64,000 bases of DNA from Bacteroidota bacterium (GCA_016699695.1 CP065006.1:3229435-3293434); one strand, 5' to 3'. Positions 939 through 28,403 are shown, counted from the stretch's first letter. Notes: generated from the sequence alone by a model not told the origin. A program made the numbers and translations.

Positions 939-2258
939 CTATTTAGGCCAATATTGATCTACCAATTCTTGTTTAATACCTACTTCCTCTGGTTTAAAGT
1001 GTTTGCTGAATAAACTCCATCCTGTATCGAGCATCTCGTTTACTTCGATGTTTACATCAATGGCCAGCAGTTTATTGGAATAATCTTTGGCAAACTGAAG
1101 GCTCCTTTGGTCGTAATCAGTAAGGTCGAAACCGTTTTCGAGTTTGGTTTTGGCATTCGCTGCATCGGCAAAAAGGCGCACCGCAGCGTTCATCACTTGA
1201 GGGTGGTCGGCCCGGGTTTTTTTACCTATAACCAGCTGCTTTAAACGCGAGAGGGACCGGAAAGGGTCAACAATTACTTTTCCAATATCCGAATCGCGGC
1301 GTAAAAAGAGCTGTCCTTCGGTAATGTATCCGGTGTTATCCGGAATAGCATGGGTAATATCTCCACCAGAAAGGGTTGTTACGGCGATGATAGTTATTGA
1401 ACCTCCTTCGGGAAATTGAACGGCTTTTTCATATATTTTTGCCAGATCGGAATATAGCGATCCGGGCATAGAATCTTTCGATGGAATCTGGTCCATACGA
1501 TTCGAAACAATACTCAAGGCATCAGCATAAAGAGTCATGTCGGTGAGCAATACCAATACCGATTCGTTTTTCTTCACGGCAAAATATTCTGCTGCTGTAA
1601 GGGCCATATCAGGCACCAACAAGCGCTCCACAGGTGGATTATCGGTTGTATTTACAAAGCTTATAATGCGGTCGAGGGCACCTGCATTGTCGAAAACATT
1701 TTTATAATAGAGGTAATCGTCGTTGGTAAGCCCCATTCCTCCAAGAATAATTTTATCGGCTTTTGCACGCAAAGCTACACTTGCCATCACCTGGTTGTAA
1801 GGCTGATCGGGGTCGGCAAAGAAAGGAATTTTTTGTCCGGAAACCAGGGTATTGTTTAAGTCGATACCAGCAATACCGGTTGCAATGAGCTCAGAGGGTT
1901 GTTTGCGCCTTACAGGATTTACCGACGGGCCGCCAATTTCAACTTCCACTCCTTCTAAGGCAGGGCCACCATCGATAGGGTCGCCAAAGGCATTGAAAAA
2001 TCTTCCGGCCAGGTCATCGCTTACTTTTAAGCTTGGAGCTTTACCAAGGAAAGTTACTTCGGCATTAGTTGGGATTCCCTCTGTACCACCAAAAATCTGA
2101 AGGGTAACGTTATCACCGACAAGTTTTACCACCTGTGCCAGCTTGCCATGCACAATGGCCAGCTCTTCGTTACCTATGCCAGTGGCTTTTAGCGAGCAGG
2201 TTGCCTTTGTGATTTGCGAAATTTTTGTGTATATTTTCTGAAAAGCCTTGTTTTCCAT
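939..2258 (-). CDS. atpB: V-type ATP synthase subunit B
   Basis: 439-aa ORF with the non-catalytic nucleotide-binding subunit pattern (GQKIPFFADPDQPYNQV, TDMTLYADALSIVS, PGSLYSDLAKIYE). It is adjacent to subunit A. Confidence 0.95.
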   Translation of the reverse strand: MENKAFQKIYTKISQITKATCSLKATGIGNEELAIVHGKLAQVVKLVGDNVTLQIFGGTEGIPTNAEVTFLGKAPSLKVSDDLAGRFFNAFGDPIDGGPALEGVEVEIGGPSVNPVRRKQPSELIATGIAGIDLNNTLVSGQKIPFFADPDQPYNQVMASVALRAKADKIILGGMGLTNDDYLYYKNVFDNAGALDRIISFVNTTDNPPVERLLVPDMALTAAEYFAVKKNESVLVLLTDMTLYADALSIVSNRMDQIPSKDSMPGSLYSDLAKIYEKAVQFPEGGSITIIAVTTLSGGDITHAIPDNTGYITEGQLFLRRDSDIGKVIVDPFRSLSRLKQLVIGKKTRADHPQVMNAAVRLFADAANAKTKLENGFDLTDYDQRSLQFAKDYSNKLLAIDVNIEVNEMLDTGWSLFSKHFKPEEVGIKQELVDQYWPK

Positions 2259-18107: not shown

Positions 18108-18836
18108 CTAATAAATGTTGTTAAGAATTAACATCTCTCTGATTTCTTTGTTGCTAAGTGCTTTTACATTAGTAACAATAAAATCGTTGTAGAGAAAATT
18201 TCCAAGTTGGTTGCATTCGCAAATTATGGATTTAAACAACTGCTGAAGCGGGATATTAAGCGGGATTAAGCAAAGGAGAGAGGCAAATTCCCCTTCAAAA
18301 ACTGAATCTTCAAGTTCAGCATTGTATTGCGAGAGAGCATAATTCACTTCTTTATGAATAATCAACTGTTGAATTGGATCAAGACTTTTACCATAAGGAG
18401 TAAAAAGCACAATGAAATAGCGAAGTTTAAGGCCTTTTCCTCCTAAAGCACTTGTTATTAATACTTTACTTTCGTTGAGTAAATCACTCTCTAGGTGTAA
18501 ACGGCTTTGTTGCAAGGCCAGGCAAGCCCAGTGATACAGTTTAATATTGGGTTGTTTCGAATATTTTTCTATTGTTCTATAGGCCTCAATACTGCTAATC
18601 GAGGCTAACTCGATAAGTTTACGCTTTTTTTTGTCCAATGACATTTCGAGGTCAAAGAGATTGTCTTTGTCCCGCAGAATTTCTTCTTCCGATTTGAATT
18701 TGCTTATTTTCCTCGAACACTCGAAATATTCCATCTGAAGGTCTGAGTCGATGTTTTCTTCCAGAATGCTGATGTCCATTTGATCCATTCCCAGGAAATC
18801 ATGCAGGTGGTCATATATGTTTTCATGCGTGCTCAC
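18108..18836 (-). CDS. hypothetical protein
   Basis: 242-aa uninterrupted ORF lying 22 nt upstream of the YkoF-like gene on the same strand. It has no signal peptide and I recognised no motif. Confidence 0.5.
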   Translation of the reverse strand: MSTHENIYDHLHDFLGMDQMDISILEENIDSDLQMEYFECSRKISKFKSEEEILRDKDNLFDLEMSLDKKKRKLIELASISSIEAYRTIEKYSKQPNIKLYHWACLALQQSRLHLESDLLNESKVLITSALGGKGLKLRYFIVLFTPYGKSLDPIQQLIIHKEVNYALSQYNAELEDSVFEGEFASLLCLIPLNIPLQQLFKSIICECNQLGNFLYNDFIVTNVKALSNKEIREMLILNNIY

Positions 18837-19187: not shown

Positions 19188-19760
19188 TTGGTGGAAAGTA
19201 AAAAGCACGAACTGCTGCTGCGAGGGATAAAAAACCGCGATACACAAACTCTTAAGGCAGTGTACAAAGAGTTTTACCCTAAAGTTGCCGGTTTTATTGC
19301 CGGTAAAGGTGGGAGTGCAGACGATGCTAAAGATATCTTTCAGGAATCGCTCATGGTAATTTACAAACTTAGCTTAACAGATCAATTTACCATTGAAACC
19401 GATTTTGGAAGTTACCTGATAGGCATAGCCAAACGAATATATTTCAAACAATTACGACAAAAAGAAATTCATCATCGCTTTGTGGATGGATCGGAGAAAA
19501 CTTTTTCTGAGGATCATCCGTCTGATGTGGAAATTGAGAATGAGATTGAGCAGCATTTAATGCGTAAGTACCTTTTAGAGTTGGGCGAAATTTGTCGAAA
19601 AATACTGCTTTGGTCAGCCAGTGGAGTAAATAATGATGAAATTGCTGAGAAATTAGGGTATAAGAGCGAAAAAATTGTGCGTACAAAAAAACACAAATGC
19701 AAGAGCAGTTTAATTTCCTTAATTAAAGCCGATCCTTATTTTAAGGGTAAAAAGAGTTAA
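19188..19760 (+). CDS. ECF-type RNA polymerase sigma-70 family factor
   Basis: 190-aa ORF with region 2 (TLKAVYKEFYPKVAGFI...DAKDIFQESLMVIY...SYLIGIAKRIYFKQLR) and a region 4 HTH (CRKILLWSASGVNNDEIAEKLGYKSEKIVRTKKHKC). Only TTG (19188) or GTG (19191) start codons are available. Confidence 0.8.
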   Translation: MVESKKHELLLRGIKNRDTQTLKAVYKEFYPKVAGFIAGKGGSADDAKDIFQESLMVIYKLSLTDQFTIETDFGSYLIGIAKRIYFKQLRQKEIHHRFVDGSEKTFSEDHPSDVEIENEIEQHLMRKYLLELGEICRKILLWSASGVNNDEIAEKLGYKSEKIVRTKKHKCKSSLISLIKADPYFKGKKS

Positions 19761-19773
19761 TAGAGTCTTCTCT

Positions 19774-22548
19774 TTAATTTCTTTTTATCTTGAAGAATAA
19801 AAATCCTGCAAAAAGTATCATCGTAATGCCTCCGAAAATCCACCATGGTGACCGATAAACCGGATCTGCATTACCGATTAAGATGTAAGAAGACCAAAAA
19901 AATGGATGCTTGTATTGCTCCTGAGCGCTTTTTAGAAAATTGAGCTTTGCAAGACGCAAAGCCTCTGATTTGGATTTGCTTTTTAAAAGGTTTTTATAAA
20001 AATAATGCATCAAAGTTTTTCCCGATTCATCTTCTACTCTCCACAAGGTTATAACCAGACTTGGGCATCCGGCATAAAAAAATCCACGCGACAGACTCAT
20101 CACTCCTTCACCATTTTTAAGCTCTCCATGCCCCGAATTGCATGCGCTTAATACGGTGAGCTGTGCTTGCAGTTTTAATGAAAAAAGTTCGTTAGTATTC
20201 AAAAATCCATTGTCGTTGGTCAAGTTATTGTCTGCAAAAACCAATTTCGAAAACAATGGGTTTTTATCGTCGATAAGAGTGTGCATGGCCAAATGCAGAA
20301 TATCATAATTATTGGCAATCTCCAGGAAATTTTCTTTGGTTGCATCTTTTCCTAATGAACTGTTACCTCGTGTAAGTTTGCATACCATCAAAGCCTCTTC
20401 GAGGGCAAACGGCAATGGGAGCAGGTAATTTCGATAGTTTCTCACCTTATATTCATCGGTATTTTTTGCTTGCTGGCTAATTCTGGCAGAATAATCGGGC
20501 GCAACAGACAGGGTCTTATTCCATAATTTCTTACCTCCTCTGCCTAGCATTTCGGAATAAATCGAGGATGAATAGGCATAAGATATGGTATAATTGTAAA
20601 CCAGATAATTGAGGTTGTTAAAAGATTTGATGGGTAAGGCACTAGGTTTATCGACAAGCGCTTCAAAAGGAATATAGGAGATAAGTCCATCCGGAATTAT
20701 TACCAGGTTTTTTTTCAGCTTATCTTGATTCACTTTACTTAAAAGCTGTTGATATAGAAAAAACGCTCTTTTGTAGTACAAGCTATAAGTTGAATGGTTT
20801 TGACCTGAAAAATCAAAATTTTTAAACTCGTTGATATAGTTTCTAAGGCTGTCTTTTAGTGCATTGTTTAACTGGGTGCGATAAAAATATACCTCTTTTC
20901 GATTAATCACAAAGAGAAACAAACTCGTGTCGCTCAGGCTATATTCAAGCAAGGTTGTATTCCTATCGAGAGACGATTGCAGCGAGGGAATTGTAGAAAG
21001 ATTGGTTTTGTATTTTAGTGAGTAATATTCCGGAAAGTCTGAATCGAGTGTGTTTTTGAGCAATTCATATTGTCTGCTGAAGTTAAAGAGGTAGCTTTTC
21101 CACACATCAAGTTTAACCTGATCAGGCTTTAATTGTATGCTTTCTTCATATACTTTCTCGTTGTAAAATGCGATTTCACGTTTCAACCTGCTTTCTTTTT
21201 CTATTAGTGAATCGGGTATTCCTGCAAATTTTTTGGCTTTTTCTTCGCTCAATACTCCCAACAGCACCGAAGATTTACTTTGTTCAGCAAAATAGAATGC
21301 CTCTTCGAGGTATTGATATTGCCCGGTTACTGAGTATAATCTTTCAGCACAATCGAGACCCTTACTGTATACTTGACTTTCTTTGTCAGACAGGTATAGC
21401 TTGCTTTCTACCGATAAATACCCCTGCCTGATTTGGTGAATGACAAGCGCCAGCTCATGAAGGTTTTTGAGTGCAAATTCGAGGTATAAAAAATTCTTTT
21501 TCTGGGCGTACCAGGCAATATAGGTATCAGATAAAGTATTCAGTAAGCTTATTGTGTGAAGCAATGATCGATGCTGAATTTTAAGGGTATCGTTACCATT
21601 TTGATCCTGCAGGTATTTAAGTGCCATTTGATAATATGAAACTGCTTTTTCAAAATCATTCCTCACTTTCCAATAATTGCCATTAAGAACCATTATATCG
21701 AAGTAATACTTTGAATCGATGGACGATTGAATGTAAATAGATTCCGCTGACCTGATCGCTTTAAGAGCCAGTTCAGGCTGGTTAGTGCTCAAGTAATACT
21801 CAGCTAAGTGCTTGTATGAATCGCAATGTAGCTGAGGAGAATGATAATTGTGTTTATCGAATAATAAGAGACTTTGTTGGATAAAAAAGAAACTGCTATC
21901 TGCCATTTTTCGATTTTTAAAGCTTATTGCGGCCGTAATGTAGATATCATGCAGGGTTATGTACTGCTGAAGGTTGTGTCGCGAGAATTCACTAATGGCC
22001 AGGTTACTGAGCCGGGAGGCTTCTGAGTAATTCTTCCGGCTGTTTTCGAGCAATGCAAAGCGATTCAAGGTTTCTATTTTACGAAGGATGGCTTCTGTGG
22101 AATTCAAATTACCAAGTAGCTTCAAAGCCTCATCAAAGTATTCCACAGCCAGCGTAAAGTCACCCTTATGGCGGTATGCATTTCCCATGTTCGAATAAAG
22201 GTTAGCCATAGATAAGGCCGGGGCATCATTTAACATATAAATTTTCCTGGCACGGTTGAAATAATCTAATCCATTGTCGAAATGCCATTGATTTATGCAT
22301 AAAACGCCAAGGTTATTTAAATCGTGGGCAATATTTAAATGATTGGGTGGATAGAGTTGGAGCGATAATTCTAGTGTTTGCTTCAGAAGTGCTTCCGCTG
22401 TTATAAAATCGCCCGTGATAAATGCTTCCACACCTCTGTTGTTAAGAGTTTTGTTAGAATCTTCCAACGCACTAACTGGATTATCAGCTGGCTGACTTTT
22501 TAAACACTCGGCTGCAAAAAGTATCAAAATGATTAAGTGCAATTTCAT
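19774..22548 (-). CDS. exported TPR-repeat CHAT-domain (caspase-like) protease with a C-terminal membrane anchor
   Basis: 924-aa ORF with a signal peptide MKLHLIILILFAAECLKS. About 400 aa are TPR-like repeats (for example NLYSNMGNAYRHKGDFTLAVEYFDEALKL). The C-terminal CHAT domain carries His (ILHLAMHT) and Cys (LTVLSACNSGHG) dyad motifs. A terminal hydrophobic helix WWIFGGITMILFAGFLFF is followed by KIKRN. Confidence 0.85.
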   Translation of the reverse strand: MKLHLIILILFAAECLKSQPADNPVSALEDSNKTLNNRGVEAFITGDFITAEALLKQTLELSLQLYPPNHLNIAHDLNNLGVLCINQWHFDNGLDYFNRARKIYMLNDAPALSMANLYSNMGNAYRHKGDFTLAVEYFDEALKLLGNLNSTEAILRKIETLNRFALLENSRKNYSEASRLSNLAISEFSRHNLQQYITLHDIYITAAISFKNRKMADSSFFFIQQSLLLFDKHNYHSPQLHCDSYKHLAEYYLSTNQPELALKAIRSAESIYIQSSIDSKYYFDIMVLNGNYWKVRNDFEKAVSYYQMALKYLQDQNGNDTLKIQHRSLLHTISLLNTLSDTYIAWYAQKKNFLYLEFALKNLHELALVIHQIRQGYLSVESKLYLSDKESQVYSKGLDCAERLYSVTGQYQYLEEAFYFAEQSKSSVLLGVLSEEKAKKFAGIPDSLIEKESRLKREIAFYNEKVYEESIQLKPDQVKLDVWKSYLFNFSRQYELLKNTLDSDFPEYYSLKYKTNLSTIPSLQSSLDRNTTLLEYSLSDTSLFLFVINRKEVYFYRTQLNNALKDSLRNYINEFKNFDFSGQNHSTYSLYYKRAFFLYQQLLSKVNQDKLKKNLVIIPDGLISYIPFEALVDKPSALPIKSFNNLNYLVYNYTISYAYSSSIYSEMLGRGGKKLWNKTLSVAPDYSARISQQAKNTDEYKVRNYRNYLLPLPFALEEALMVCKLTRGNSSLGKDATKENFLEIANNYDILHLAMHTLIDDKNPLFSKLVFADNNLTNDNGFLNTNELFSLKLQAQLTVLSACNSGHGELKNGEGVMSLSRGFFYAGCPSLVITLWRVEDESGKTLMHYFYKNLLKSKSKSEALRLAKLNFLKSAQEQYKHPFFWSSYILIGNADPVYRSPWWIFGGITMILFAGFLFFKIKRN

Positions 22549-22742
22549 TCTGAAGAAATGAATAGGTAGATGAATAACATGAAAGTACTAAAATTTATTC
22601 AATTTAATATTCTAATAATCAACAAATTAATAAATAGGTGTTGTTTTTTTTTATTTTTTTCATTAGAAACCGGTGACATTTTAGTGTCCAGTGGTACTTA
22701 ATAGTAAAACAATGAATTATTATTCACTTATACATAAAAGCA

Positions 22743-22877
22743 ATGAAACTTTTTAACAAATCTTCAGAAAGAAAAAGCAGCGATTTTAATCTGGCTCAAA
22801 AGCAAGTATTAAGTGTAAAAGAATTAATGACTATACGCGGTGGCGATGAGCACGGTGGTATGATCATAAGAAAATAA
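22743..22877 (+). CDS. 44-aa peptide precursor with a double-glycine (bacteriocin/pheromone-type) leader
   Basis: Hand translation gives MKLFNKSSERKSSDFNLAQKQVLSVKELMTIRGG-DEHGGMIIRK, with stop TAA at 22875..22877. Residues LSVKELMTIRGG match the GG-leader consensus LSxxELxxIxGG at every position. It is too short for the supplied ORF track. Confidence 0.6.
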   Translation: MKLFNKSSERKSSDFNLAQKQVLSVKELMTIRGGDEHGGMIIRK

Positions 22878-22894
22878 TATCCAAATAGGCATTC

Positions 22895-22980
22895 AAATAT
22901 CCCAAAGCGGGTTTAATTTAACCTGGTTTTAACGGCACTCATTCCCTTAGAATATAATGTACCCCGCTTTGGTGATATTT
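22895..22980 (+). repeat. structured element A: 17-bp stem enclosing the conserved 18-mer TGGTTTTAACGGCACTCA
   Basis: The left arm aaatatcccaaagcggg (22895..22911) pairs with the right arm cccgctttgg(t)gatattt (about 22963..22980) with one bulge. The loop carries the 18-mer at 22924..22941. It starts 18 nt after the peptide stop codon. Confidence 0.55.
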
Positions 22981-23126
22981 GGAAAAATGGTCCAACTTTT
23001 TTTTGAGAAAGTTTGACTTAAAAAGTGGGATCAAATAACTTGGGAAACCAATTTGGCGGTTGTAAGCATTAAAGTTTAATACGTAATAGTTAGTAAAAAA
23101 ATGGAAAAATAAATTCCAACCTTCCC

Positions 23127-23195
23127 GGGCGGGACAAAGCTCTTTTGGTTTTGACGGCACTCAATATACCTCTCTTATCTTCTTTTGTTCCGCCC
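23127..23195 (+). repeat. structured element B: 13-bp stem enclosing the conserved 18-mer TGGTTTTGACGGCACTCA
   Basis: The left arm gggcgggacaaag (23127..23139) pairs with the right arm cttttgttccgccc (23182..23195), including two G-T wobbles that work only on the plus strand. The 18-mer at 23146..23163 differs from copy A at one base. In both copies the spacer from the 18-mer to the right arm is 20-21 nt (21 nt in A, 20 nt in B). Confidence 0.55.
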
Positions 23196-23378
23196 ACTTT
23201 TTTATACTTCTGAATATAGCATACAGATATAAAAGATACATAGATATTATTGTCTACTGAAACCTTAACCTTCTATTCTTTTACTGGTAACCCCAGGTAA
23301 TACGTGGATATATTTCTTTATTTTGCTCCCGAAAAATTTTTATGGGGTGCATTGGTGAATAACTGAACCCAAATTATT

Positions 23379-24140
23379 ATGGCTAAAGAACTGGATTACA
23401 CTCAATTTATTGAGCGATACCTGCAACAAGAAATGAGCCCAGCTGAAAAAGTATGGTTTGAAAAGGAATTGCAGGGAAACTCATTGTTACAGGATGAATT
23501 GCTCTTTTACCGAAAGGTAAACCAGGTGCTTGCTGAAAAAGAACTGGTCGATTTTAAGTTGCAGCTGGATGCAATTCACAGAGAAATTATACAAACTTCA
23601 GTTGGAGGTCAGCACTATATCAGACAATACAGAAAAAAGATTAACCTGCTGGCCGGAAGTGTGATGGCAGCTTCTGTCGTATTGAGTTTATATTTTCCAA
23701 ACCGTAAGATATCCGATCAGAATCTTTACAATCGCTATTTTGAACCAGCTTCCTTTTCAGTAAGTTACCGCGATGCCAGCGAGCAAGACAGAATGCTGAA
23801 GGAGGCTATGCAGTTGTACGAAAGTAAGCAGTATTCAGAAGCAATCAGTCATTTCGAAAAAATCATGATCATTGAACCTAACAAATATGGGATAAATCTT
23901 TATGCTGGGATAGCCCATATGGAATTGGCACAATACCCCCAGGCTATTCTTCGGTTCAACACGATTTTAACTCAGGATTATGGCCCATTTTCCGAATCGG
24001 CTAGCTGGTATTTGGGGCTTTGTTATTTGTATTCCAACGAGAAAACAAAGGCAAAAAATCTGTTCGAAGGTTTGATGCAATCCGACGGATATTACAAGCG
24101 CGATGCCCACCGTATACTTAAGCATATGAAAGGTAAATAG
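23379..24140 (+). CDS. single-pass membrane TPR protein, anti-sigma-factor-like
   Basis: 253-aa ORF with a soluble helical N-domain (YTQFIERYLQQEMSPAEKVWFEKELQGNSLLQDELLFYRKV) and one TM segment (LLAGSVMAASVVLSLYF). The C-terminus has TPRs (EAMQLYESKQYSEAISHFEKIM; YAGIAHMELAQYPQAILRFNTIL; WYLGLCYLYSNEKTKAKNLFEGL). There is no zf-HC2 motif, so the anti-sigma role is inferred from architecture and context. Confidence 0.6.
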   Translation: MAKELDYTQFIERYLQQEMSPAEKVWFEKELQGNSLLQDELLFYRKVNQVLAEKELVDFKLQLDAIHREIIQTSVGGQHYIRQYRKKINLLAGSVMAASVVLSLYFPNRKISDQNLYNRYFEPASFSVSYRDASEQDRMLKEAMQLYESKQYSEAISHFEKIMIIEPNKYGINLYAGIAHMELAQYPQAILRFNTILTQDYGPFSESASWYLGLCYLYSNEKTKAKNLFEGLMQSDGYYKRDAHRILKHMKGK

Positions 24141-24230
24141 TTTGATTGGAATTAGCCTTATACCAGATATTTATTAACGGGACAAATGTCTATTGCTTTA
24201 AATTGAAACAATTCTCAAAAATGATGTGAG

Positions 24231-25148
24231 ATGAACCCTATAAGGATGATCCAGGAATGGATCAAGGCATTTATGCCAAAACATCGGATTATAAGCGATT
24301 ACAATCAAATGGTAAGCCGGTTAAAACAACTTGAAATGCAAGTTGCACAAAGTTCACAGCAATTGGAGCTGGCAAAGGCAAGCTTCCTGAAAAACATCTA
24401 CCATGAAATTCGCACGCCCCTTAATTCCATAATAGGGTTTACAAATCTGCTTGATAATAAACACCTACTTGCTCCTGAAGAAAGAGAAGAATATACTAAC
24501 CTTATCAATGTAAATAGCCGTAAGTTTTTAAGCCTACTTGACGACATTATTCAAGCATCTCTGCTTGAAGCCGGTATGATAAAGATTAAGCCCGAACCTG
24601 TTTGTTTGGGCGAATTCTTTGATGAAAACCATAGTTTTTATTCTATCCGCCGACATACCCAGGAAAAGAATGCCATTGCACTTTTGCTAACGGTAGAAGA
24701 AGACATAAAGCAAAAAAGCTTTGTTTTTGACCGTTACCGAATAGCACAAGTGCTTACTCAATTAGTCGATAATGCGCTGAAGTATACTGATAAAGGAGTG
24801 GTGGAATATGGTTGCACAATTCAGAATGAACGTCTGGAGTTCTTCGTGAAAGACAATGCAATACCTATACTAATGCCTCAAAAGAGATTGCTGTTTAAAA
24901 AGTTCTCGAAATTAGAGGTATCAAAAACAAATGATGGCGGCTTAGGTTTAGGTTTGTCTATTTGCAAAGATTTGCTCCAATTAATGGAAGGAGATATTCT
25001 TGTAGAATCAAATCATGGACATGGAAACACCTTTATTTTTTCTATACCTGCCATTATCTCGAAGGATGAGAACAATTTGATAACTGAGCCAATAAAAGAA
25101 TCACGCATACATTTTTTTCAAAGAGCAACTACATATCGGGCTGTGTAA
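24231..25148 (+). CDS. cytoplasmic histidine kinase lacking a sensor domain (degenerate G1 box)
   Basis: 305-aa ORF with an N-terminal coiled coil, H-box FLKNIYHEIRTPLNSIIGF, N-box LVDNALKYT and G2 GGLGLGLSICK. Where DxGxG is expected the sequence reads VKDNAIPI. Confidence 0.75.
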   Translation: MNPIRMIQEWIKAFMPKHRIISDYNQMVSRLKQLEMQVAQSSQQLELAKASFLKNIYHEIRTPLNSIIGFTNLLDNKHLLAPEEREEYTNLINVNSRKFLSLLDDIIQASLLEAGMIKIKPEPVCLGEFFDENHSFYSIRRHTQEKNAIALLLTVEEDIKQKSFVFDRYRIAQVLTQLVDNALKYTDKGVVEYGCTIQNERLEFFVKDNAIPILMPQKRLLFKKFSKLEVSKTNDGGLGLGLSICKDLLQLMEGDILVESNHGHGNTFIFSIPAIISKDENNLITEPIKESRIHFFQRATTYRAV

Positions 25149-25160
25149 TTTGTATAATAA

Positions 25161-28100
25161 TTAACCAAGCGAATGCTCTTTTCTTGGCAACGTGAAAGAG
25201 AATGTAGTTCCCTTTCCCAGTTCACTATCGACCATTAACTCGCCTTGGTTTTTTTCAATAAACTCTTTGCAGATTATTAAACCTAAGCCAGTACCGTTTT
25301 CGCCTGCGGTACCGGTGGTAGAGAAATATTCGTCGATTCGGAAAAGTTTTTTGATATTTTCCTGCGATATTCCAATTCCGGTATCTCTTATTGCAATCAG
25401 GCATTTATCCTGCGAGATATCTGAGCAACTAATCGTGACAATTCCATTGTTTGCTGTAAATTTTATAGCATTACTCACAAGGTTACGAATAATAAGATTT
25501 ACCATATTGAAATCGGCCCATGCCTTTCCACTGCATTCCATTTTTGTTTTGATGGCAATGCTTTTTTTCTCAGCATTGCCAGTACTTAGAATAACAATCT
25601 GTTGAATTATTTCGTGCAATTGTATGTGGTCTGGTGTATACTTGATACGCTCAGTTTGGGTGCGAGCCCATTGAAGGAGATTCTCTAGCAGGTTATATGC
25701 ACTCTCTGAAGAAGTTTTAATCATACCCAAGAGATCAAGGCGCTGTTTCTCTTCAAAATCTTCAAAATTCCGCATGAGCAATTCCGAGAAGCCAAAAATG
25801 GCCTGGAATGGATTTTTTAAATCATGGGCAATTATAGAAAAGAATTTATTTTTTGTTGCATTTAGTTCCTCCAGTCGGGCATTTGTTTTTTTCAAGATAT
25901 CAGACTGCCGGTTTAACTCTTCGGCCTGTATCTGAATTTTTTCCTGCCTTTCCTCCAGTAATGTATTTACTTCTTTCAAACTTTCCGCTTGCTCAATTAA
26001 TTGCTTTTCAGTGTTTTTTTGCTTAGTAATATCCCGGCCAATGCCCACAATACCCATAATTTTACCATCGACATCTTTAAAAGGTACTTTGGTTGTTGAA
26101 ACTACTTTTTCCCTTCTTTCTTCATCAAAGCCAATTTCTTCTTTGTTAATCATGGCTTTACCCGTGCGCATAATCCTAACCTCGTCGTTGAAGTATTCTT
26201 GGGCTGCTTCTTTTGAAGGTGCAAGGTCAAAATCGGTTTTCCCAATGATATCGTCAAGGTTGTCGGTTTGCATAGTATCGAGCATTCGCTTATTCACAGT
26301 AATAAAGCGGCTTTCGGCATCTTTTATATAGATAAAGTCAGGCATGTTATCGATCAGGGTACGTAAAAGCGAACGTTCCTTTTCAATCATTTTATTTTGT
26401 TCTTCCAGCCATTCCGATTGTTTAAGTATTTCTTCCGAACGTTCCTCCAGCAATTGGTTGACTTCTTTAAGGTCTTCGGCTTGCTGTTCGAGCTGCTGTT
26501 GGTAATTTTTAAGTTCGGTGATGTCTTTTGTAATACCAACCAGTCCTAATATTCGCCCATCTTCGTCGAAATAGGGTACCTTGGTTACCGTCCGGAATAT
26601 CTTTTCTCCATCGTCAAGAACACGCAATTCTTCTTTGTTTATTACTGCCTTTTTTTGTGCAATAATTTGTTTTTCCAATTCGATGAACCTTTGCGCCTGG
26701 TCCTTTGGATAGAAGTCAAGATCGCTTTTTCCTTCAAGTTCATAGGACGAGTTAATTCCAAGTTTTTCCATCAGTGACTTGTTGGCCAGTACAAAGCGGC
26801 TTTGGGTGTCTTTGATGTAAATAGAATCGGGGATATTGTCGATAAGCACTCTTAGGAGGTTTCTTTCGTTTTCAACTATTTTATTCTGGGTTGCCAGTTC
26901 TGAGGATTGCTGTTGAATTTCTTCCTGACGTTCTTCTAGTACTACATTCACCTCTTTGAGGTAATCGGCCTGCTCCTGTAGTTTGATTTCGGTTTCTTTC
27001 AGAGATGTAATGTCTTTTCCAATTCCTACAATACCTTCTATTTCCCCATCGGCATTTCTGTATGGCACTTTGCTTGTTAGCAAATACATGAGGTTCCCGT
27101 TTTTATCCAGACTAGTTTCCTCAATGCCAATCATTGGGCTGCCTTTCGAAATAATCCGCTGATCGTCGGAAAAAAATTTCTTGGCCATTTCTTTCGGATA
27201 GATGTCAAAATCAGATTTTCCTTTAATTTCTTCCTCCGAAGCGATGTTCAAGGAATCGAGCATGTACTGATTGGCTGTAATAAAGGTGCTGTTTTTATCT
27301 TTGATGTAAACAAAATCAGGCAGGTTGTCGATCAGGGTGCGCAGCAGTTTTCGCTCACTTTCCAGTATTTTATTTTGTTCGCCTAATTCATCGGCCTGTT
27401 GGTTAATTTCTTCCTGTCTTTCTTCGAGCAATACATTAACCTCTTGCAGGTTTTGTGCCTGTTCAATTAACTTTTCTTCAGTTTCCTTAAGCTTGGTAAT
27501 ATCACGGCCAATGCCTACCAATCCTAGAATTTTTCCGTTTTCATCTTTAAATGGCACTTTAGTTGTAGAGCGAACCCTGATATTTCCTTCTTTGTCGAAG
27601 CCTATTTCTTCTTTATTAATCACCGACTGGCCGGTGTCCATTATAAATTTATCGTCCTTATAAAAGATATCAGCAATTTCTTTTGGATAGTAATCGAAAT
27701 CGGATTTTCCGAGAATTTCACTTCTCGATTTGGCTTTGGTAATCTCAATCTGTGCGATATTGGCATCTAAAAAGCAACATTCGCTATCTTTTATATAGAT
27801 GGCATCCGGCATATTATCTATCAAGGTACGTAGCAAAAGTCTTTCTTTTTCAATTTCCTCATTTTTCTGTGTCAACAACTCGTTGTAAAGATTTTGCTGA
27901 GTAGTGTCAGAAATTATTCCTAAAAGGCCTATTAATTTGCCATTTCTATTTTTAAGAGGGTATTTTCTTGTAACTGTGAATTTGAGTATTCCGTTGTTCT
28001 CGCTTCGCTGTTCCCGAAGCAATTCAGGCACATCATTGTATAGTATTTGCTGGTCTTCGTAATTGTATTTGGCAGCAATACTTTCTTCGTAAAGGTCCGA

Positions 28101-28403
28101 ATCGTGCTTACCTATTAATTCTTTCGGTGATGATTTTTTCAGTAAGCTGGCAAACTTTTCGTTTACCACGATATACTTTCCATAGGGGTCCTTAATAAAA
28201 ATGCTATCGGGAAGGTTGTTTAATAAGGTAATGAAGGGTACTGTTTCCTCGGGATTCAATTCGCTAAGGTCGCGTAGAATGCCCATTGGACCTTTGAAAT
28301 ATTTTAAATACAAGTAAATTCCAAGTGCTGTAATCAGCGCACCTGTCATAAAAGGAATAACGAATTGAAAGCTCAGGGTTGAAAAATAGGTAAGTGAAAT
28401 CAC
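25161..28403 (-). CDS. membrane-anchored multi-PAS sensor histidine kinase
   Basis: 1080-aa ORF with an N-terminal TM helix and five PAS modules separated by coiled-coil linkers. It then has H-box FFSIIAHDLKNPFQAI, N-box LVSNAIKFT, G1 IRDTGIGI and G2 GTGLGLIICKEF. Confidence 0.9.
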   Translation of the reverse strand: MISLTYFSTLSFQFVIPFMTGALITALGIYLYLKYFKGPMGILRDLSELNPEETVPFITLLNNLPDSIFIKDPYGKYIVVNEKFASLLKKSSPKELIGKHDSDLYEESIAAKYNYEDQQILYNDVPELLREQRSENNGILKFTVTRKYPLKNRNGKLIGLLGIISDTTQQNLYNELLTQKNEEIEKERLLLRTLIDNMPDAIYIKDSECCFLDANIAQIEITKAKSRSEILGKSDFDYYPKEIADIFYKDDKFIMDTGQSVINKEEIGFDKEGNIRVRSTTKVPFKDENGKILGLVGIGRDITKLKETEEKLIEQAQNLQEVNVLLEERQEEINQQADELGEQNKILESERKLLRTLIDNLPDFVYIKDKNSTFITANQYMLDSLNIASEEEIKGKSDFDIYPKEMAKKFFSDDQRIISKGSPMIGIEETSLDKNGNLMYLLTSKVPYRNADGEIEGIVGIGKDITSLKETEIKLQEQADYLKEVNVVLEERQEEIQQQSSELATQNKIVENERNLLRVLIDNIPDSIYIKDTQSRFVLANKSLMEKLGINSSYELEGKSDLDFYPKDQAQRFIELEKQIIAQKKAVINKEELRVLDDGEKIFRTVTKVPYFDEDGRILGLVGITKDITELKNYQQQLEQQAEDLKEVNQLLEERSEEILKQSEWLEEQNKMIEKERSLLRTLIDNMPDFIYIKDAESRFITVNKRMLDTMQTDNLDDIIGKTDFDLAPSKEAAQEYFNDEVRIMRTGKAMINKEEIGFDEERREKVVSTTKVPFKDVDGKIMGIVGIGRDITKQKNTEKQLIEQAESLKEVNTLLEERQEKIQIQAEELNRQSDILKKTNARLEELNATKNKFFSIIAHDLKNPFQAIFGFSELLMRNFEDFEEKQRLDLLGMIKTSSESAYNLLENLLQWARTQTERIKYTPDHIQLHEIIQQIVILSTGNAEKKSIAIKTKMECSGKAWADFNMVNLIIRNLVSNAIKFTANNGIVTISCSDISQDKCLIAIRDTGIGISQENIKKLFRIDEYFSTTGTAGENGTGLGLIICKEFIEKNQGELMVDSELGKGTTFSFTLPRKEHSLG
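25886..27845 (-). repeat. intragenic tandem array of four roughly 490-nt PAS plus coiled-coil modules
   Basis: Protein repeats begin at about aa 187, 351, 514 and 677 with ER(L/K/N/S)LLR(T/V)LIDN(M/L/I)PD..YIKD. Each ends in (E/D)IT.LK..E..L.EQA..L.EVN.LLEER.EEI. The units are also recognisably similar at DNA level. Confidence 0.8.

Follow-up and report, generated by a model that had tools for sequence, protein, structure and literature searches.

A candidate envelope circuit in Bacteroidia: an ECF sigma factor, a single-pass TPR anti-sigma-like protein and a predicted periplasmic TPR-CHAT protease

The locus described here raises the question of what a caspase-like protease of the TPR-CHAT type (TPR, tetratricopeptide repeat), predicted to be exported, does beside a sigma factor of the extracytoplasmic function (ECF) type and a single-pass TPR protein resembling an anti-sigma factor. 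It occupies positions 19188-25148 of a 64,000-nt stretch of DNA from Bacteroidota bacterium GCA_016699695.1 (CP065006.1:3229435-3293434), hereafter the window, from whose first letter positions are counted. The host genome is complete (3.97 Mb) and is described as that of a sludge Bacteroidales bacterium. A preliminary description of the window had proposed that five elements are linked here, namely the sigma gene, the TPR-CHAT gene, a double-glycine (GG) leader peptide gene followed by two structured repeats, the gene for the 253-residue TPR protein and a histidine kinase gene; the list of open reading frames (ORFs) and their translations reproduce all five at the coordinates given below. Our analysis indicates that this cassette is a sub-type of a widespread Bacteroidia module, composed of an ECF sigma, a single-pass anti-sigma-like protein and a TPR-CHAT protein predicted to be periplasmic and tethered. 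The three core genes are as follows:

19188..19760, + strand: ECF (group 4) sigma factor, 190 residues, matching TIGR02937
19774..22548, - strand: exported TPR-CHAT caspase-like protease, 924 residues, matching Pfam CHAT at 2e-59
23379..24140, + strand: single-pass anti-sigma-like protein, 253 residues, recognised from TPR matches, a transmembrane (TM) segment and a complex model

The core unit and its recurrence

The sigma belongs to the ECF (group 4) sigma-70 factors: it matches the ECF superfamily model TIGR02937 with 47.8 bits over residues 22-168 (cut-off 42.9) and Pfam Sigma70_r2 weakly (21 bits), reaches the cut-off of no specific curated sigma sub-family, and has no TM segment by hydropathy. 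The same model matches all 48 module sigmas, with E values up to 1e-5. The 3' end of the sigma gene faces that of the CHAT gene, and orthologues hold the same position in L006, L009, L011, L012 and L013. (Loci L006 and L009-L013 are related cassettes; those numbered from L028 to L066 belong to the wider family.)

Gene order was compared at several distances. The contigs of four homologues of the 253-residue protein (45, 43, 39 and 29% identical) all preserve one order, 4 of 4: sigma; convergent TPR-CHAT; an ORF of 42-56 residues; a 250-residue TPR protein; and a kinase of about 300 residues. At these four loci the 3' end of the CHAT gene overlaps the sigma gene by 4-22 nt. The order is also that of a 77%-identical orthologous locus in a Bacteroidales metagenome-assembled genome, and the full cassette is found in L006, L009/L010, L011, L012 and L013, over which anti-sigma identity falls from 85% to 29%. 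A related-locus search of genome contigs returned one close orthologue and two cyanobacterial CHAT proteins. The host genome itself carries a second triad, in which another TPR-CHAT gene is convergent with an operon of two genes overlapping by 14 nt; these encode a sigma 28% identical to that of the window and a full-length homologue of the 253-residue protein, 27% identical.

A profile of the 253-residue family, searched against 400 Bacteroidota genomes, gave full-length matches in about 40, most belonging to the same class and many having several matches each. Sixty matches were picked irrespective of their neighbours, and all ORFs in the 20 kb round each were scored with custom profiles. 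An ECF sigma gene lies directly upstream on the same strand at 53 of the 60 loci; a TPR-CHAT gene lies within 10 kb at 50 and within 100 nt of the sigma/anti-sigma pair at 26. In five of those genomes the CHAT genes number 2-8 per genome, the majority lying next to such a pair, and a random 20-kb stretch of these five would hold a CHAT gene less than about 5% of the time. The genes between the pair and CHAT vary, and include those for secreted PKD/DUF7849 proteins, S8 subtilases and a beta-lactamase-fold protein. The arrangement is not due to chance, because it recurs in distant genomes. Synteny, which the preliminary description had made a test of its proposal, therefore holds for the sigma, the 253-residue protein and TPR-CHAT, both in the cassette down to 29% identity and in the wider family. 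Co-occurrence with a GG peptide, likewise raised there, held in part: the sigma/anti-sigma/CHAT set is widespread, but a regex scan found no GG-leader peptide near the 60 wider-family loci, nor did any gene at them pass the kinase profile. GG peptide and kinase are confined to the sub-type seen in the window and are no part of the wider module.

A separate feature of some wider-family loci is a recurrent divergent operon before CHAT, encoding proteins of about 99, 326 and 650 residues (L041, L045, L047, L052, L056, L059 and L066). The 650-residue protein, scanned in L041, contains PKD, DUF7619 and DUF7849 domains; S8 subtilases occupy this position at other loci.

The module is also independent of CRISPR, as had been supposed for the sigma/TPR-CHAT pairing in the window. 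No RAMP-family gene was matched across the complete 3.97-Mb genome, and no CRISPR-like direct repeats are present inside the window. A type III-E craspase locus would have Cas7-11, an array and Csx30/Csx31 beside the TPR-CHAT gene; the neighbouring genes here are of other kinds.

The candidate anti-sigma, the predicted tethered protease and their proposed cleavage in trans

The 253-residue protein comprises a helical N-domain (residues 1-75), one TM segment by hydropathy (88-106), a linker with Arg131 and three TPRs (135-250). Lysine and arginine (K/R) residues precede the TM segment and the TPRs come after it. In a Pfam scan, it matches TPR models only, in its C-terminal half, and the family of TPR proteins of about 250 residues to which it belongs is conserved over its full length. 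The AlphaFold2 (AF2) model (pLDDT 80) has three N-terminal helices, a TM helix, a short helix and TPR helices from residue 135, with a non-helical segment at 121-134. Arg131 is invariant in the 44-member anti-sigma alignment and present in 82% of 66 wider sequences.

The complex predicted for the sigma and residues 1-88 of this protein gave an interface score (ipSAE) of 0.85 in three runs, with the best control at 0.17; the mark set for this score is reached by 58 of 80 solved complexes and by 2 of 110 mismatched pairs. In these runs the pLDDT of the partners did not fall below 78 and at least 79% of the contacts were common; the predicted contacts fall on sigma-2 (17-59) and sigma-4 (121-179). 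The model thus supports binding of the sigma by residues 1-88, so that a failure of the N-domain to show predicted binding, which would have spoken against the preliminary description, was not encountered. The operon arrangement at 53 of 60 loci, together with the complex model, supports the view that the 253-residue protein behaves as the anti-sigma of this sigma. Pfam anti-sigma families match none of the 44 family members. Class I anti-sigma factors (ASD) grip their cognate ECF sigma between sigma-2 and sigma-4 with a helical domain at the N-terminus. The protein may belong to this class: the predicted contacts reach both sigma domains, and in the paralogues the gene directly follows the sigma gene. 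The protein falls outside the zinc-binding anti-sigma (ZAS) type, to which the DdvA N-domain belongs and which is marked by a zinc motif of the form H/C-x-C-x2-C, with no Cys and a single His (67) in residues 1-85, and no conserved column of the N-domain is Cys or His. A third match to the family, elsewhere in the genome (865921-866286, +), covers profile positions 1-129 only, inside a 384-residue frame, which may join a sigma-binding domain of this type to a different outer domain.

For the 924-residue protein, the Pfam CHAT match spans 289 of 289 profile positions, and several TPR models also match. Its layout is a signal-type N-terminus, helical repeats at 24-526, CHAT at about 531-892, a TM segment at 903-921 and a K/R tail. 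Having the CHAT fold and a His and Cys dyad, it is to be placed with the CHAT/clan CD caspase-like peptidases, protease activity itself being predicted. H752 and H756 in the His motif and C803 in the Cys motif are invariant across 44 aligned CHAT relatives; this invariance of the dyad, with that of the neighbouring motifs, argues for retained catalysis. The intact His and Cys motifs, the signal peptide and the C-terminal hydrophobic anchor had all been noted before, and alignment, hydropathy and residue pattern bear them out; the TPRs are likewise present, over a region nearer 500 residues than the 400 or so first estimated. In the AF2 model (pLDDT 87.5, pTM 0.84), helical repeats extend to 526, CHAT forms an alpha/beta domain and residues 902-923 form a terminal helix. 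When this model was used to search with Foldseek, the TPR-CHAT of Csx29/craspase came first (8eey_B, 4e-17), followed by separases and DdvA (8rot, 8rw5; about 3e-13). A profile search of solved structures with the CHAT alignment was dominated by TPR proteins and was uninformative.

Most aligned CHAT relatives have a signal-type start, commonly ending A/S-Q as is typical of Bacteroidota signal peptidase I substrates, and a TM helix with a K/R-rich tail at the end. Because the relatives share both of these features, TPR-CHAT is predicted to be periplasmic and tethered to the inner membrane beside the TPR domain of the anti-sigma. The preliminary description had likewise assigned the protease, and with it the TPR half of the anti-sigma, to the extracytoplasmic side, and topology prediction, from the TM or signal-type N-terminus and the placement of K/R residues, agrees for both.

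Two known systems provide a context for this topology. In the RseA/DegS/RseP system, which governs sigma-E in Escherichia coli, a periplasmic site-1 cut is followed by that of an M50 site-2 protease. The module resembles it in its single-pass anti-sigma with a cytoplasmic sigma-binding domain, and an RseP-type M50 protease gene is present in the genome; it differs in its candidate for the site-1 cut, which instead of a PDZ serine protease is a cysteine protease of clan CD equipped with a TPR sensor. The second system is DdvA/DdvS of Myxococcus xanthus, in which a periplasmic TPR-CHAT is part of a transmembrane anti-sigma paired with an ECF sigma (PMC11506125, PMC6061681). For DdvA, self-cleavage by CHAT in the juxtamembrane linker ahead of RseP has been proposed and is unproven, and DdvA-like proteins are found, according to the authors, only in Myxococcota and a single species of Comamonas (PMC11506125). 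Both DdvA/DdvS and the module have an ECF sigma under a single-pass anti-sigma that holds it, a TPR-CHAT of separase/craspase type whose His/Cys dyad lies on the periplasmic side, and a proposed CHAT cut in a juxtamembrane linker followed by RseP. DdvA unites the sigma-binding domain, the TM segment and TPR-CHAT in one polypeptide, whereas here they are divided between two genes: the protease is encoded separately, on the opposite strand, with its own signal-type N-terminus and anchor, and the anti-sigma has three TPRs only. Furthermore, the N-domain here is without the CHCC zinc motif, the regulon is no CBASS (cyclic-oligonucleotide-based antiphage signalling) or CRISPR island, and the split form is common in Bacteroidia, with a sub-type that adds a GG peptide, a kinase and RNA hairpins. 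By this analogy the module reads as a split form of DdvA, with the protease and its likely substrate separate but on the same face of the membrane.

These comparisons lead to a model in which the tethered periplasmic CHAT cuts the anti-sigma in trans and thereby releases the sigma, a proposal for which we judge the balance to be about level. First, the sigma would be bound by the cytoplasmic helical domain of the anti-sigma, a step supported by the complex model and by the operon structure in the paralogues. A periplasmic cue would then be read by the TPR surfaces of the protease, of the anti-sigma or of both. In the third step, CHAT would make a site-1 cut in the non-helical linker between the TM segment and the TPRs of the anti-sigma, at or near Arg131; this we infer from what is proposed for DdvA, from the compartment common to both proteins and from the conservation of the dyad (invariant) and of the Arg in the linker. 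Finally, the RseP-type M50 protease, together with cytoplasmic proteases, would clear the remainder of the anti-sigma.

A number of points weigh against cleavage in trans. The CHAT cleavage step is a proposal both here and in DdvA, and a fused anti-sigma-CHAT form was not found among the longer relatives of the 253-residue protein, in what was a weak search. Ten of the 60 pairs (about 17%) have no CHAT gene within 10 kb, so that this type of anti-sigma can work without an adjacent CHAT. One anti-sigma sub-clade has Met-Ser in place of the linker Arg. The promoter-like motif found before the GG peptide gene (see below) does not occur before the sigma, CHAT or anti-sigma genes. As for the predictions, the signal-peptide call for CHAT is one of hydropathy and pattern only, and, solved sigma/anti-sigma complexes being numerous, the complex score of 0.85 may partly reflect likeness to them. 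Gene order, moreover, is silent on whether CHAT acts upstream or downstream of the sigma, and the divergent operon that CHAT shares at many loci with genes for secreted proteins, of PKD-domain or subtilase type, fits a role as output.

The main rival to the trans-cleavage model takes up this last point. It holds that the sigma and anti-sigma are a conventional envelope sensor pair and that CHAT is an output enzyme of the sigma, acting on exported proteins or on the GG peptide and not on the anti-sigma; we consider it possible but doubtful. ECF sigmas commonly control adjacent operons, and CHAT is at many loci in a unit of its own, which runs either towards or away from the sigma operon and in many cases also encodes secreted PKD/DUF7849 proteins or S8 subtilases. 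The ten pairs without a nearby CHAT also fit this reading, as do CHAT relatives without a membrane anchor, such as the Ekhidna-type proteins of about 894 residues. On the other hand, the near one-to-one pairing of CHAT and anti-sigma across the paralogues within a genome suggests a specificity beyond that of a shared regulon, the protease and the anti-sigma are predicted to be tethered on the same face of the same membrane, and at 8 of the 60 loci (e.g. L028, L033 and L044) CHAT follows sigma and anti-sigma on their strand as a third gene, a position taken by pathway regulators in other ECF operons. DdvA, in addition, has both parts in one polypeptide (PMC11506125). Gene order by itself cannot separate the output reading from the trans-cleavage model.

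The sub-clade with the altered linker (DPGL...Met-Ser; L028, L033, L042, L044, L046, L054 and L055) goes with the same-strand order sigma, anti-sigma, CHAT and with longer CHAT proteins of about 1070-1090 residues, and may reflect a different cleavage specificity.

Peptide, RNA elements and kinases of the sub-type

The features that distinguish the sub-type lie on either side of the anti-sigma gene:

22673..22697, + strand: promoter-like motif GTGACA-N13-TGGTAC, conserved upstream of the peptide gene
22743..22877, + strand: double-glycine-leader peptide, 44 residues, leader LS..EL..I.GG
22897..22980, + strand: structured element A, from its fold and a covariance model
23119..23206, + strand: structured element B, from conservation and compensatory changes
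23284..23304, + strand: short hairpin with TAATACG, conserved in the window, L006, L009 and L011, variant in L012
24231..25148, + strand: soluble histidine kinase, 305 residues, with HisKA and HATPase_c

The 44-residue gene product had been called a GG-leader peptide from the outset, which its leader pattern and its recurrence at the same position in L006, L009, L011 (as two tandem copies), L012 and L013 confirm. All the small ORFs of the cassettes (42-56 residues) encode such peptides, with short, mostly acidic, Gly-rich cores. The predicted mature product is acidic, Gly-rich and about 10 residues long in the window, and 9-21 residues long across the cassettes, with no Cys pairs and no amphipathic or hydrophobic core. 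The 44-residue peptide reaches no curated-family cut-off. Bacteriocin-type leader models give weak matches (E 0.02-0.08), the weakest of them with a bacteriocin induction factor, a kind of pheromone. At L012 and L013, the most distant loci, a gene for a C39 peptidase-ABC (ATP-binding cassette) exporter and an HlyD-like gene adjoin the cassette; the genome has three C39-ABC genes, to one of which the L012/L013 exporters are about 55% identical and to the other two about 30%. With a conserved leader, an adjacent exporter in these two loci and an orthologue of it in the genome, the peptide has the marks of a C39 double-glycine peptide, its processing being predicted. The orthologous exporter gene is part of a separate GG-peptide locus (L083, genome 1953000-1970000; 6107-12689 within it), which also encodes a LytS-type membrane kinase, a LytTR regulator, an HlyD-like protein and two tandem GG peptides with acidic cores.

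The promoter-like motif ends 46 nt before the ATG of the peptide gene in the window and is followed by TTA. It stands 45-60 nt before the peptide start in 5 of 6 loci (the window, L006, L009, L011 and, as a variant, L012), and the exact pattern occurs 3 times in the genome, compared with once for a control pattern. We regard it as a candidate target of the cassette sigma, with a putative promoter function. A near-identical copy is found at L080 (genome 1735668-1738692), at 1501-1525 (-) of that locus, before the gene of a secreted protein having an S74-type chaperone segment and a C-terminal domain of the type IX secretion system (T9SS) type. The start region of this gene contains five tandem 8-nt TTCTTTCA units, and its signal-peptide ORF is seemingly out of frame with a 352-residue ORF; the gene may be phase-variable and a second target of the sigma. 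An autoregulatory promoter upstream of the sigma gene was also considered and rejected, since an in-frame extension further upstream in L006 accounts for the conservation of bases there and no motif is shared.

Conservation of the motif allows the trans-cleavage model to be carried two steps further. The freed sigma would transcribe from the motif before the peptide gene; then, speculatively, the C39-ABC exporter would cleave and export the peptide, and the product of about 10 residues would feed back as an autoinducer on the periplasmic TPRs. The peptide as signal is the least supported step of the model and is speculative. Taken at its fullest, the model becomes a pheromone circuit, with a GG peptide exported by the C39-ABC transporter, sensing by periplasmic TPRs, a CHAT cut switched on by the binding, and autoinduction, as the released sigma would transcribe the peptide gene along with two sigma-dependent structured RNAs; CHAT proteases would also be the usual site-1 enzymes for a large class of Bacteroidia ECF systems. 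In this complete form we think it unlikely.

In the GG-peptide circuits of Firmicutes (ComC/ComAB, Blp, Plantaricin), a membrane histidine kinase senses the peptide and a LytTR regulator answers. The cassette has in common with these a short GG-leader gene beside sensing genes, a C39-ABC exporter and possible autoinduction, and the orthologous exporter locus of this genome, with its LytTR-type two-component pair and two GG peptides, adds to the likeness. In contrast, the kinase of the cassette has neither a membrane nor a sensor domain, its neighbours are a sigma/anti-sigma pair and a protease, and the host is a diderm. Double-glycine leaders and C39-ABC exporters are also classic for bacteriocins, and a further alternative has the GG peptide as a bacteriocin-like product, or a ribosomally synthesized and post-translationally modified peptide (RiPP), whose production or immunity the cassette regulates. 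The bacteriocin-type leader matches favour this reading, which we nevertheless consider improbable: the mature peptides lack the Cys pairs and the hydrophobic or amphipathic core, being short, acidic and Gly-rich instead, the cassette has no conserved gene for a modification enzyme or for immunity, and the weakest of the leader matches is itself to a pheromone.

The two structured repeats noted earlier behind the peptide gene are confirmed as having a common core and a long closing stem. In element A, the closing stem surrounds the conserved core TGGTTTTAACGGCACTCA; the element folds at -32 kcal/mol and is present in L006, L009 and L011. Element B has a closing stem of 12-13 bp round the same core and then a T-run, a terminator-like arrangement. 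About 46 nt of it are nearly identical in the window, L006, L009 and L011, whereas the flanking proteins are just 43-87% identical. A covariance model built from the four B copies finds element A at E=0.004, and a search of the whole genome with it yields no copies besides A and B. In the 12-bp closing stem of B, 90% of cells are paired and compensatory changes occur in 5 of 12 pairs; its score was reached by none of 500 shuffles and all slid controls were lower, on an alignment that was fitted to the covariance model and hence leans towards structure. In a MAFFT alignment of all nine hairpin copies the 3' arms were misaligned and no consensus structure emerged. The hairpin with TAATACG lies about 75 nt before the anti-sigma start. 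An Rfam scan of the window gave a single tRNA above gathering score, and chance-level matches only in the intergenic region.

The kinase is sensor-less, as first described: it has Pfam HisKA (7e-14) and HATPase_c (3e-19) and no other domain, a coiled-coil lead-in and no hydrophobic segment by hydropathy. It lies directly downstream of the anti-sigma gene in L006 and L009-L013, that is, in all members of the sub-type. H58 does not vary, nor does the Asn of the N-box. For the G1 box, L012 and L013 have the canonical form and L009 and L011 an altered one, while the copies of the window and L006 are degenerate. Ala-Val or Ala-Ile forms the C-terminus in five of six orthologues. The activity of this short kinase may be reduced or altered. 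The gene tables of the related cassettes contain no response regulator. Convergent with the short kinase gene is one for a 1080-residue histidine kinase (25161-28403, -) that has five PAS units with coiled-coil spacers; it stands beside the cassette in L006, L009 and L011, is farther off in L012 and is absent in L013. On the other side, upstream of the sigma gene, lies a gene for a 242-residue protein (18108-18836, -) that matches neither Pfam nor NCBIfam; a gene of similar size without a Pfam match takes the same position in L006, L009 and L011, and is outside the cassette in L013.

Metagenomes of activated sludge, wastewater and bioreactors, drawn from 12 studies, contain DNA near-identical to the locus. 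RNA contigs in three metatranscriptome runs (two studies) reach from the end of a variant peptide gene into element A. One run has an RNA contig of 1070 nt over the anti-sigma gene, at depth 302, and another of 721 nt over the kinase gene, at depth 57; a DNA run over this region is flat at about 20. Such RNA contigs give neither transcript ends nor a ranking of the genes. Run X18 has no RNA contig over sigma or CHAT, and the absence of a contig is not evidence of silence.

Known systems and the meaning of the module

The type III-E craspase system (Cas7-11, Csx29, Csx30, Csx31 and an RpoE-type sigma; PMC10028731) likewise links a TPR-CHAT protein to an ECF sigma and a restraining protein, and its Csx29 is the best structural match of the CHAT model. 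Craspase, in contrast, is cytoplasmic, RNA-guided and activated when Cas7-11 binds target RNA, whereas the protease here is exported and membrane-tethered. The analogy drawn in the preliminary description to RRNPP receptors is loose. These bind a re-imported peptide with cytoplasmic TPRs joined to an effector, a helix-turn-helix (HTH) or phosphatase domain; the TPRs here follow a TM or signal-type N-terminus, are predicted to be periplasmic and are joined to neither domain.

A last alternative, that TPR-CHAT is a non-proteolytic co-receptor or shield on the anti-sigma TPRs, like RseB with RseA, with its site used for self-processing or unused, would suit the TPR surfaces that both proteins have in one compartment and the view of the DdvA authors that the DdvA active site is incomplete, but is very improbable given a His/Cys dyad and neighbouring motifs invariant in 44 of 44 relatives.

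Among the papers searched, none connects CHAT proteins with sigma factors in Bacteroidota (Bacteroidetes, Flavobacterium). CHAT goes unmentioned in the main text of the ECF re-classification paper; the context tables for the ECF group concerned may already list a CHAT neighbour. The earlier statement that no experimentally described system of such architecture is known is to be narrowed: DdvA/DdvS, which has been studied by experiment, is a precedent for an envelope TPR-CHAT with an ECF sigma; the split form was not found in the papers searched. The split sigma/anti-sigma/CHAT set looks like an undescribed envelope circuit, with DdvA/DdvS as its closest precedent.

Activation is known for few of the many ECF groups, and Bacteroidota carry the most ECFs per genome (PMC7826278). 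If CHAT is the site-1 enzyme, a caspase-like protease would be added to the known ways of ECF release, and the mechanism would cover a module present, often in multiple copies, in roughly a tenth or more of the 400 Bacteroidota genomes. A naturally split version would allow enzyme and substrate to be studied apart, and would make the unproven DdvA cleavage model directly testable. The TPR-CHAT and sigma pairing of type III-E CRISPR loci would then be part of a broader, CRISPR-independent regulatory theme. Finally, the GG-peptide sub-type points to peptide signalling in Gram-negative sludge bacteria, of which, to our knowledge, few examples have been described.

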